In this document: positions 31,441 to 31,695 of the stretch, one piece after another
Layout of the letters: each line of letters starts with the position of its first letter
How positions within the stretch are numbered: position 1 is the first letter of the stretch
Virus record (IMG/VR): IMGVR_UViG_3300021466_000176
Reading direction: 5' to 3' (one strand)
DNA from: a virus
DNA length: 64,000 bases
Notes under the pieces: generated by a model
The model's database searches: none
Told to the model about the DNA's origin: nothing
Seen by the model: the letters and a program-made list of their open reading frames with translations, nothing else
Translations under genes and position numbers: made by a program

Positions 31441-31695
31441 TCGGATCGGCCTGGTGTCGTTCCGAACACGGGGCTGTTTCACCCCGCTTTTCCGATCGAT
31501 GCTATCGGGTAAGTGTTGGCCGTCCGGTACTCAAACCGGGCCATAGACCGCTAAGTTCGGCCGGGCGGAGTACGTGTGAAAGCATGGGACAGGATCAACG
31601 TCCCTATCTCCCCCGCCGAGATAGGTGAGAAAATCGGTATGAACCGTCTTCTGTATTCCAATGGGGAATGAAACAGAAAATTGGTTCGAAAACCG
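31441..31695 (+). ncRNA. Candidate omegaRNA/tracrRNA-like scaffold (~234 nt) plus putative guide
   Basis: Hairpin CGGGG-CTGTTTCA-CCCCG (31469-86) whose loop pairs with TGAAACAG (31669-76); scaffold ends GGGGAATGAAAC (31663-74), 11/12 identical to the CRISPR repeat 3' end; CTTATTA TATA-like at 31408-14. Confidence 0.6.

Follow-up and report, generated by a model that had tools for sequence, protein, structure and literature searches.

A predicted tracrRNA-like scaffold RNA of a Cas12f-like type V module in a tRNA-rich haloarchaeal virus

The virus record IMGVR_UViG_3300021466_000176 represents a genome of 134 kb, estimated to be 91% complete, with a G+C content of about 53% and more than 30 transfer RNA (tRNA) genes. 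The stretch analysed here, termed the window, comprises 64,000 nucleotides (nt) from this record. Segment 31441-31695 of the window lies in an 840-nt gap between a TnpB-family nuclease gene on the minus strand and a CRISPR array of eight repeats on the plus strand. This segment likely represents the 5' half of a non-coding RNA of about 490 nt, serving as the trans-activating CRISPR RNA (tracrRNA)-like scaffold of a Cas12f-like type V module in a haloarchaeal tailed virus. The module consists of the nuclease gene, the scaffold RNA, a CRISPR leader and the eight-repeat array (Table 1). The assignment is based on the conservation of the RNA among related loci, its covarying fold, the strand on which it is encoded, its strict association with the nuclease gene, and two contacts between the RNA and the CRISPR repeat that covary as well. 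A first-pass annotation, made from the letters of the window alone, had described the segment as a free-standing guide RNA of the omegaRNA type which might also serve as tracrRNA for the CRISPR RNAs (crRNAs) of the array. The second of these suggestions is well supported by the comparison with relatives, whereas the first is not.

Related loci were drawn from assemblies, GTDB genomes, IMG/VR and metagenomes; those in IMG/VR were detected by an alignment-based scan, a query with the single protein having given none. Homologues with 37-46% identity to the nuclease make up more than 120 protein clusters, nearly all of them from hypersaline sources. Altogether, 18 homologous loci in haloarchaeal genomes, plasmids and viruses carry a Cas12f-like TnpB gene together with the conserved structured RNA. 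Cultured carriers include Haloarcula amylolytica JCM 13557, Halonotius pteroides CECT 7525, Natrinema hispanicum CDM_6 and, on a plasmid, Actinarchaeum halophilum YIM 93972. Wherever the nuclease has a close homologue (36-48% identity), be it in genomes, plasmids, IMG/VR viruses or metagenomes, the same RNA lies beside it, and an nhmmer profile of the RNA is matched at every close homologue locus and at none of the distant ones. Moreover, a covariance model of helices P1-P3 was positive in two of 150 other Halobacteria genomes, each time beside a nuclease homologue. Gene, RNA and array follow one order in 17 of the 18 loci with enough flanking sequence. At nearly every close homologue, an array lies upstream in divergent orientation, its leader end facing the gene. 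Repeats of the relatives fall into two classes, namely I-D-like repeats of 37 nt ending in ...GGGATTGAAAC and I-B-like repeats of 30 nt ending in ...GGGGTTGAAGC or variants of it.

By profile comparison, the adjoining effector is a Cas12f-type RuvC nuclease, for which cleavage of DNA is predicted. Its product P0001 matches the Pfam family Cas12f1-like_TNB (4e-17) and the NCBIfam model guided_TnpB (109 bits), and the RuvC catalytic columns are invariant in the family alignment. A profile of the nuclease family aligns, over nearly its full length, with Cas12f structures at E-values of 1e-38 to 1e-22, with chains of AsCas12f size at 1e-38 to 1e-34 and the named Cas12f/Cas14a chains at 1e-31 to 1e-22. 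The match of the same profile to ISDra2 TnpB is weak (E 2e-6), and that to LaTranC (E 2e-7) concerns the C-terminal part. The NCBIfam Cas12f2 model scores the nuclease at 108 bits against a cut-off of 450, which is thus not passed.

The intergenic regions of the relatives share about 400 nt of conserved non-coding sequence, which extends from the equivalent of position 31440 to just before the leader. The RNA of the window is longer, at about 490 nt, and carries three lineage-specific expansions in the alignment. A consensus fold predicted by RNAalifold from 16 sequences contains 61 base pairs, 49 of them with compensatory changes. The predicted pairs are canonical in 92.8% of the alignment cells, compared with 35-42% when the partners are slid against each other. 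Additionally, helices P1-P3 have a covariation score of 0.729 versus 0.221 for shuffled alignments, and none of 500 shuffles scored as high. The RNA is assigned to the plus strand because of its conserved G-U pairs. A minus-strand tracrRNA, with a possible anti-repeat at 31807-66, was considered as well and rejected, as that region is part of the plus-strand fold with its conserved G-U pairs. Helix P4, whose register is shifted by one base in the window, joins the two halves of the RNA, which must therefore cover at least 31440-31923. In searches of Rfam at gathering thresholds over the window, and at E-values up to 1 over 29400-32100, only tRNAs and sub-threshold CRISPR-DR matches were obtained, so that the RNA belongs to no family known there.

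Several elements of this fold had been noticed before. All motifs named in the first-pass annotation are found where it placed them: GATCGG (31444-49), CCGATC (31492-97), the hairpin at 31469-86, the TATA-like CTTATTA (31408-14), GGGAC (31586-90), GTCCC (31600-04), TATCTC (31605-10), GAGATA (31618-23), ATTCC (31655-59) and GGAAT (31665-69). The hairpin 31469-86, here named P2, has strong covariation support, and GGGAC/GTCCC is retained with compensatory changes in most relatives of the alignment. Likewise, a structured plus-strand RNA beginning near 31440 behind a TATA-like box agrees with the comparison, as all 18 loci have an A/T-rich box 22-30 nt upstream of P1, which may serve as promoter. 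A 5' stem formed by GATCGG and CCGATC is not borne out, since 51% of its cells are paired as against 50.7% after shuffling and its arms belong to the separate hairpins P1 and P3. TATCTC/GAGATA is not conserved in relatives, and ATTCC/GGAAT does exist, but as the tip of a hairpin expansion confined to the window. Furthermore, the scaffold does not end at 31674 after 234 nt, as had been proposed; the conserved fold runs to about 31930, with P4 tying 31515-20 to 31869-74. Taken by itself, 31441-31675 folds with an ordinary energy (z-score -1.7), and for this reason no decision was possible from the single sequence. In the comparison of homologous intergenic regions, the P1-P3 fold and the pairing of loop and repeat covary, while the proposed 5' stem and a repeat mimic acting in cis find no support.

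The RNA is predicted to contact the repeat at two sites. In anti-repeat 1, the loop of P2, 90 of 96 possible pairs with the repeat end are formed over 16 loci, a number reached by none of 20000 repeat shuffles; in anti-repeat 2, located by a scan for complementarity specific to the repeat of each locus, 98 of 112 possible pairs are formed, a number reached by 11 of 20000 shuffles. Both shuffle tests are inflated by the relatedness of the loci, and the protein tree is too poorly resolved for independent events to be counted. The loop and the repeat end change together, as seen in the combinations GUUUCA/UGAAAC, GCUUCA/UGAAGC, GCUUCG/CGAAGC, CCUUCA/UGAAGG and AUUCCA/UGGAAG, and the remaining loci retain four or five of the six pairs, partly by G-U. 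Similarly, alignment column 509 within anti-repeat 2 and repeat position -8 read U/A in six loci, C/G in nine and A/U in the locus L063. In total, loop, anti-repeat 2 and repeat end occur in 14 distinct combinations. In Cas12f guide RNAs, the repeat is bound by a pseudoknot with anti-repeat 1 and by a duplex with anti-repeat 2 (PMC10097598). The idea that the RNA serves as tracrRNA for the crRNAs of the array is thus well supported, because the two covarying contacts show the bipartite repeat:anti-repeat geometry of Cas12f.

A mechanism can be proposed on these grounds. The array transcript would supply crRNAs, possibly after processing. The last six nt of the repeat would pair with the P2 loop (31476-81) and thereby form a pseudoknot just 5' of the guide, as in TnpB/Cas12 guide RNAs, while the preceding six to seven nt would pair with 31875-81. 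The spacer would thereby be positioned as guide of the nuclease in a putative ribonucleoprotein, which may recognize its targets beside a target-adjacent motif (TAM).

Table 1. Coordinates of the nuclease gene, the predicted RNA with its parts, the leader and the array in the window
Feature	Position	Strand	Remarks
Cas12f-like TnpB nuclease gene (P0001), 414 amino acids	29974..31218	-	RuvC residues D233/E322/D401 intact
TATA-like box CTTATTA	31408..31414	+	upstream of helix P1 by about 26-32 nt
tracrRNA-like scaffold RNA, full conserved structure	31437..31933 (about)	+	from nhmmer and RNAalifold; predicted ends
Hairpin P1, conserved loop (GGCUAUAUGUC in relatives)	31440..31466	+	both-side changes in 10 of 11 pairs
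Hairpin P2	31469..31486	+	stem cells 98.8% paired; loop CTGTTTCA
Anti-repeat 1 (GTTTCA), P2 loop	31476-81	+	pairs repeat nt -6..-1, predicted pseudoknot in trans
Hairpin P3, conserved loop YGAUGCU	31487..31513	+	both-side changes in 9 of 10 pairs
Long-range helix P4	31515..31520 with 31869..31874	+	96.9% canonical; 5 of 6 pairs compensatory
Hairpin P6, enlarged	31633..31697	+	window-only expansion of about 53 nt (31639-31691)
Pseudo-repeat end GGGGAATGAAAC	31663..31674	+	11/12 to repeat 3' end; at and just below tip of P6 expansion
Supposed guide	31675..31697	+	descending (3') strand of P6 expansion and P6 base, paired in minimum-energy fold
Anti-repeat 2 (ATCCCCA), just 3' of P4	31875..31881	+	pairs repeat nt -13..-7
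Helices P8/P9	31881..31923	+	93.1% canonical cells; 7 of 11 pairs compensatory
Conserved purine-rich motif (GGAAAAAGAAA in relatives)	31921-33	+	after P8/P9
CRISPR leader inverted repeat CATCGACCCAC ... GTGGGGGTCGATG	31953..31992	+	position kept in relatives' leaders
CRISPR array	32059..32607	+	8 I-D-like 37-nt repeats with the end GGGGATTGAAAC; spacers 33-43 nt

There are also some observations that weigh against the assignment to a Cas12f-type system. Cas12f tracrRNAs are roughly 130-200 nt long, and the RNA described here has two to three times that length. It has no defined 3' end and may be read through into the array. The repeats resemble those of types I-B and I-D, and each contact between RNA and repeat is short, with 5-7 base pairs. 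Cleavage of the repeat in the manner of Cas6, 8 nt from its end, would strip off the nt that pair with anti-repeat 2. The protein tree of the nuclease is poorly resolved, so that independence of the switches between repeat types is not proven; it has at least two changes of repeat type on the best tree, and one is possible. Furthermore, no target of the spacers was found in phages or plasmids, in the fetched loci or in the virus itself, and spacers 1 and 2 have none in IMG/VR. As no spacer yielded a protospacer, no TAM can be derived. The sequencing runs that carry the locus sequence are all DNA runs, with no RNA run among them.

The feature that had made a single guide so attractive is an enlargement of hairpin P6. 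In relatives, P6 has a stem of 5 base pairs and a loop of 7 nt, and the expansion in the window replaces this loop. The region 31633-31697 folds as one long hairpin of -27.9 kcal/mol (z-score -4.7), and none of 200 shuffles was as stable. A tandem duplication of P6 (31628-46 and 31675-95) was also considered and dropped, one extended hairpin being simpler. Near the tip of the hairpin lies the pseudo-repeat, in which both the match to the repeat end at 11 of 12 positions and the complementarity of TGAAACAG to the P2 loop at 8 of 8 positions, reported earlier, are confirmed. It is the sole match with at most one mismatch outside the array, in the 64-kb window as well as in the 134-kb virus genome. 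By chance, 0.40 such matches are expected in the window on both strands, and about 0.002 when scaled to an RNA of 500 nt on one strand. In 15 relatives, the RNA contains no copy of the respective repeat end. The tip of the expansion can be aligned end to end with the I-D-like repeat of the relative L018 minus its middle 17 nt (p about 0.03), which suggests a repeat-derived insertion. Judged by these alignments, the expansion with its pseudo-repeat and supposed guide is virus-specific and probably derived from a CRISPR repeat. The locus is present in halite metagenomes as DNA contigs; these are identical to it and include no insertion variant, with 31650-31730 covered by the probable source sample only.

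The supposed guide passes directly into conserved scaffold and is a 17/21 copy of scaffold positions 31628-46. It has no match in the virus genome at up to two mismatches and none in IMG/VR. In 185,579 GTDB genomes, its 18-mer has 25 matches, which is about the number expected by chance, and none of these is in Halobacteria. The earlier remark that the window holds no convincing target thus extends to the virus genome, IMG/VR and GTDB. Within the tRNA region (elements 32941-36860), a copy of an element of the repetitive extragenic palindromic (REP) kind at 34805-34824 on the minus strand differs from 31676-95 at 3 of 20 positions. This A-rich match is too weak for a target and probably reflects chance or a shared hairpin composition.

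A free-standing natural single guide would consist of the scaffold 31441-31674, the repeat mimic as a pseudoknot in cis, and a functional guide, perhaps a regulatory one, from 31675 onwards (AGAAAATTGG...). The mimic does exist, and within the RNA it is improbable by chance; it comprises exactly the 12 repeat nt that touch both anti-repeat sites, and natural fused guides are on record for Cas9 in the form of tracr-L (reference 21 in PMC8730458). Even so, we consider this explanation very unlikely. The mimic lies within an expansion of a terminal loop found in the window only and absent from the 15 relatives, 250 nt of conserved scaffold together with the 3' arm of P4 still follow it, the guide strand is base-paired in a hairpin of unusual stability and resembles its own scaffold, and no target could be found. 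Of four tests made of the single-guide reading, three speak against it and the fourth finds the repeat-like segment that can pair in cis. Pseudo-repeat and guide are therefore no conserved single-guide module, and the claim of a natural single guide RNA is not supported. Another role of the mimic is conceivable. If the P6 expansion opens, the mimic could occupy both anti-repeat sites in cis, giving a self-occupied scaffold that acts as switch or gatekeeper, which we regard as an unlikely though not negligible possibility. In that case, the cis mimic would form 8 + 5 base pairs as compared with 6 + 6 for the real crRNA. Such a scaffold could hold the nuclease inactive until viral pre-crRNA accumulates, and it could exclude host type I crRNAs with the same 8-nt handle, which might otherwise turn the nuclease on the virus.

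Two further explanations set the tracrRNA-like scaffold aside altogether. The array could be an orphan mini-array served by the type I-D or I-B machinery of the host (Cas6, Cascade), with the RNA being leader-associated or regulatory and unrelated to the TnpB gene. This would suit the I-D-like repeats of 37 nt or I-B-like repeats of 30 nt with the handle ATTGAAAC or TTGAAGC, the presence of the exact 3' 20-mer of the repeat in cyanobacterial arrays, the spacers of 33-43 nt as in type I arrays, and the absence of cas genes within 3.5 kb of the related loci. However, gene and RNA are linked at every locus found, including one that is rearranged and one without an array, and covariation connects RNA and repeat at two sites, in Cas12f geometry. 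Moreover, a Cas1 match is missing in three of five carrier genomes, and in the two cellular carriers checked, the repeat (allowing up to three mismatches) is confined to TnpB-linked loci and does not occur in other arrays. An orphan array is thus decidedly improbable as the whole explanation; it is compatible with the Cas12f reading in so far as host Cas1-Cas2 or Cas6 could serve the array. Alternatively, the RNA could be a canonical IS200/IS605 omegaRNA or the transposon end of a mobile TnpB element, with the array nearby by coincidence. NCBI does name the homologues TnpB or IS605 OrfB, and in L063 the RNA shares the strand of the gene and follows it downstream. On the other hand, the nuclease gene is present once in the 134-kb virus and once or twice per host genome with no adjacent tnpA, in 17 of 18 loci (the window and 16 others) the RNA is placed divergently on the upstream side of the gene rather than at its 3' end, there is no conserved sequence after the stop codon, and no guide is fused to the scaffold, which runs on for 250 nt beyond the proposed one. 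This explanation is considered extremely unlikely.

Some of the related loci show peculiarities of their own. In the rearranged locus L063:2501-4310, on an A+T-rich IMG/VR contig, the RNA lies 114 nt 3' of the gene stop on the same strand and is followed by the leader and two repeats of 30 nt; its P2 loop (AUUCCA) and its column 509 (A) both fit its own unusual repeat end GGGUAUGGAAG. L222 (G017:C2:63658-66751) has the gene and the full scaffold RNA with no array within 500 nt and with a degenerate leader palindrome, and it may represent a remnant without array or a form that is guided differently. In a plasmid of Actinarchaeum halophilum (G004:C3:80934-81500), a second, weaker match to the P1-P3 model (41.7 bits) adjoins two repeats GTTACAGAAGGACCCTAGTGGGGTCGGAGC, with an intact module on the same plasmid; this copy may be a degenerate duplicate. 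The 15-kb contig NZ_QMDW01000039 of Halonotius pteroides (L020/L021) carries the whole module twice, about 7.5 kb apart, with five-repeat arrays having identical spacers. Genes near the loci are typical of mobile elements, including those for a family B DNA polymerase, an Mrr nuclease and a Rep-like protein. The polymerase gene is located past the array in L022 (525-2732) and L029 (1-2142), and an Mrr-type nuclease follows the TnpB-like gene of L029. These neighbours point to plasmid or provirus contexts for the module.

In the window, the repeats of the array degenerate with distance from the nuclease gene. The leader inverted repeat, of the form TCGACCC...GGGTCGA, is situated about 65-100 nt 5' of the first repeat and is common to loci with 30-nt and with 37-nt repeats. 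A small open reading frame (31245-31382, minus strand) lies directly 5' of the nuclease gene on the same strand, and homologous positions are taken by such frames in L014 (234-359), L027 (about 3320-3452) and L016 (about 690-819). Those of L014 and L027 begin with MV(K/T)H(L/I)N(I/V)A(I/V)DDDL and look ribbon-helix-helix-like by eye, with no profile match; the frame of the window has only the HGLTW motif in common. The product may regulate the divergent promoters. The locus gave no match by blastn against a phage collection. In full-text literature, the haloarchaeal family was not found described, although the V-U group supplements of PMC10691335 could still list it. This census of TnpB/Cas12 excluded arrays linked to non-type-V systems and lists 40 V-U groups (V-U6 to V-U45), some of them archaeal.

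If correctly assigned, the module adds a compact and self-contained type V (Cas12f-like) system to haloarchaea and their viruses and plasmids, in which type I systems are usually studied. A single lineage of effector and tracrRNA appears to be coupled to two families of type I-like repeats, the 30-nt I-B-like and the 37-nt I-D-like one. Two short anti-repeat segments would have been retuned for each repeat family, which bears on the question of how TnpB-derived nucleases capture pre-existing arrays. Moreover, the covariation predicts the interface at which the crRNA docks, base by base, and outlines a large scaffold (about 400 nt) with additional domains. Additionally, what looked persuasively like a natural single guide proved to be a hairpin expansion that is lineage-specific and probably repeat-derived, which calls for caution when guide RNAs are read from single sequences.

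Among known systems, the natural single guides of Cas9 (tracr-L) resemble the RNA of the window in that a tracr-type RNA contains a repeat-like segment which could pair with the anti-repeat in cis. In such guides, the half-repeat follows the anti-repeat and leads into a short free guide whose target is known or conserved, whereas the mimic found here is internal, buried in a hairpin, restricted to one virus and without target. With the omegaRNA of ISDra2-type TnpB, the RNA shares the logic of guide, pseudoknot and stem, in which 5-6 nt just 5' of the guide pair near the 5' end of the scaffold; in ISDra2, these are nt -6..-2, forming a pseudoknot with a 5'-proximal segment (PMC10097598). Unlike there, the guide would be carried by an RNA of its own that stems from a CRISPR array, the genes for RNA and nuclease diverge without overlap at the 3' end of the latter, and there is neither a transposase nor multicopy spread. 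TranC, for which splitting of an omegaRNA has been modelled (PMC13565253), likewise combines a TnpB-sized effector with a scaffold divided into a tracr-like RNA and a crRNA, but LaTranC is distant (E 2e-7), and no fused guide of the omegaRNA type is conserved in the haloarchaeal family.

The closest likeness is to type V-F Cas12f, such as Un1Cas12f1 (Cas14a) and AsCas12f1. In both cases, the nuclease is small (about 400 amino acids), with a family profile closest to Cas12f structures, and the effector gene and the array flank that of the tracrRNA. As in Cas12f, the guide-proximal nt of the repeat are predicted to form a pseudoknot with a 5'-proximal segment of the RNA and the preceding nt to pair with a 3'-proximal segment (PMC10097598). 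The present system differs in the size of the RNA, about 400 nt in the family and about 490 nt in the window, and in helices P8/P9, which extend beyond anti-repeat 2. It also differs in its repeats and leader, which resemble those of haloarchaeal type I-B or I-D systems with both classes occurring in one effector family, and in its hosts, which are Halobacteria with their viruses and plasmids. Taken together, the comparison argues for a tracrRNA of the Cas12f type, unusual in its large size and coupled to repeats that are type I-like.
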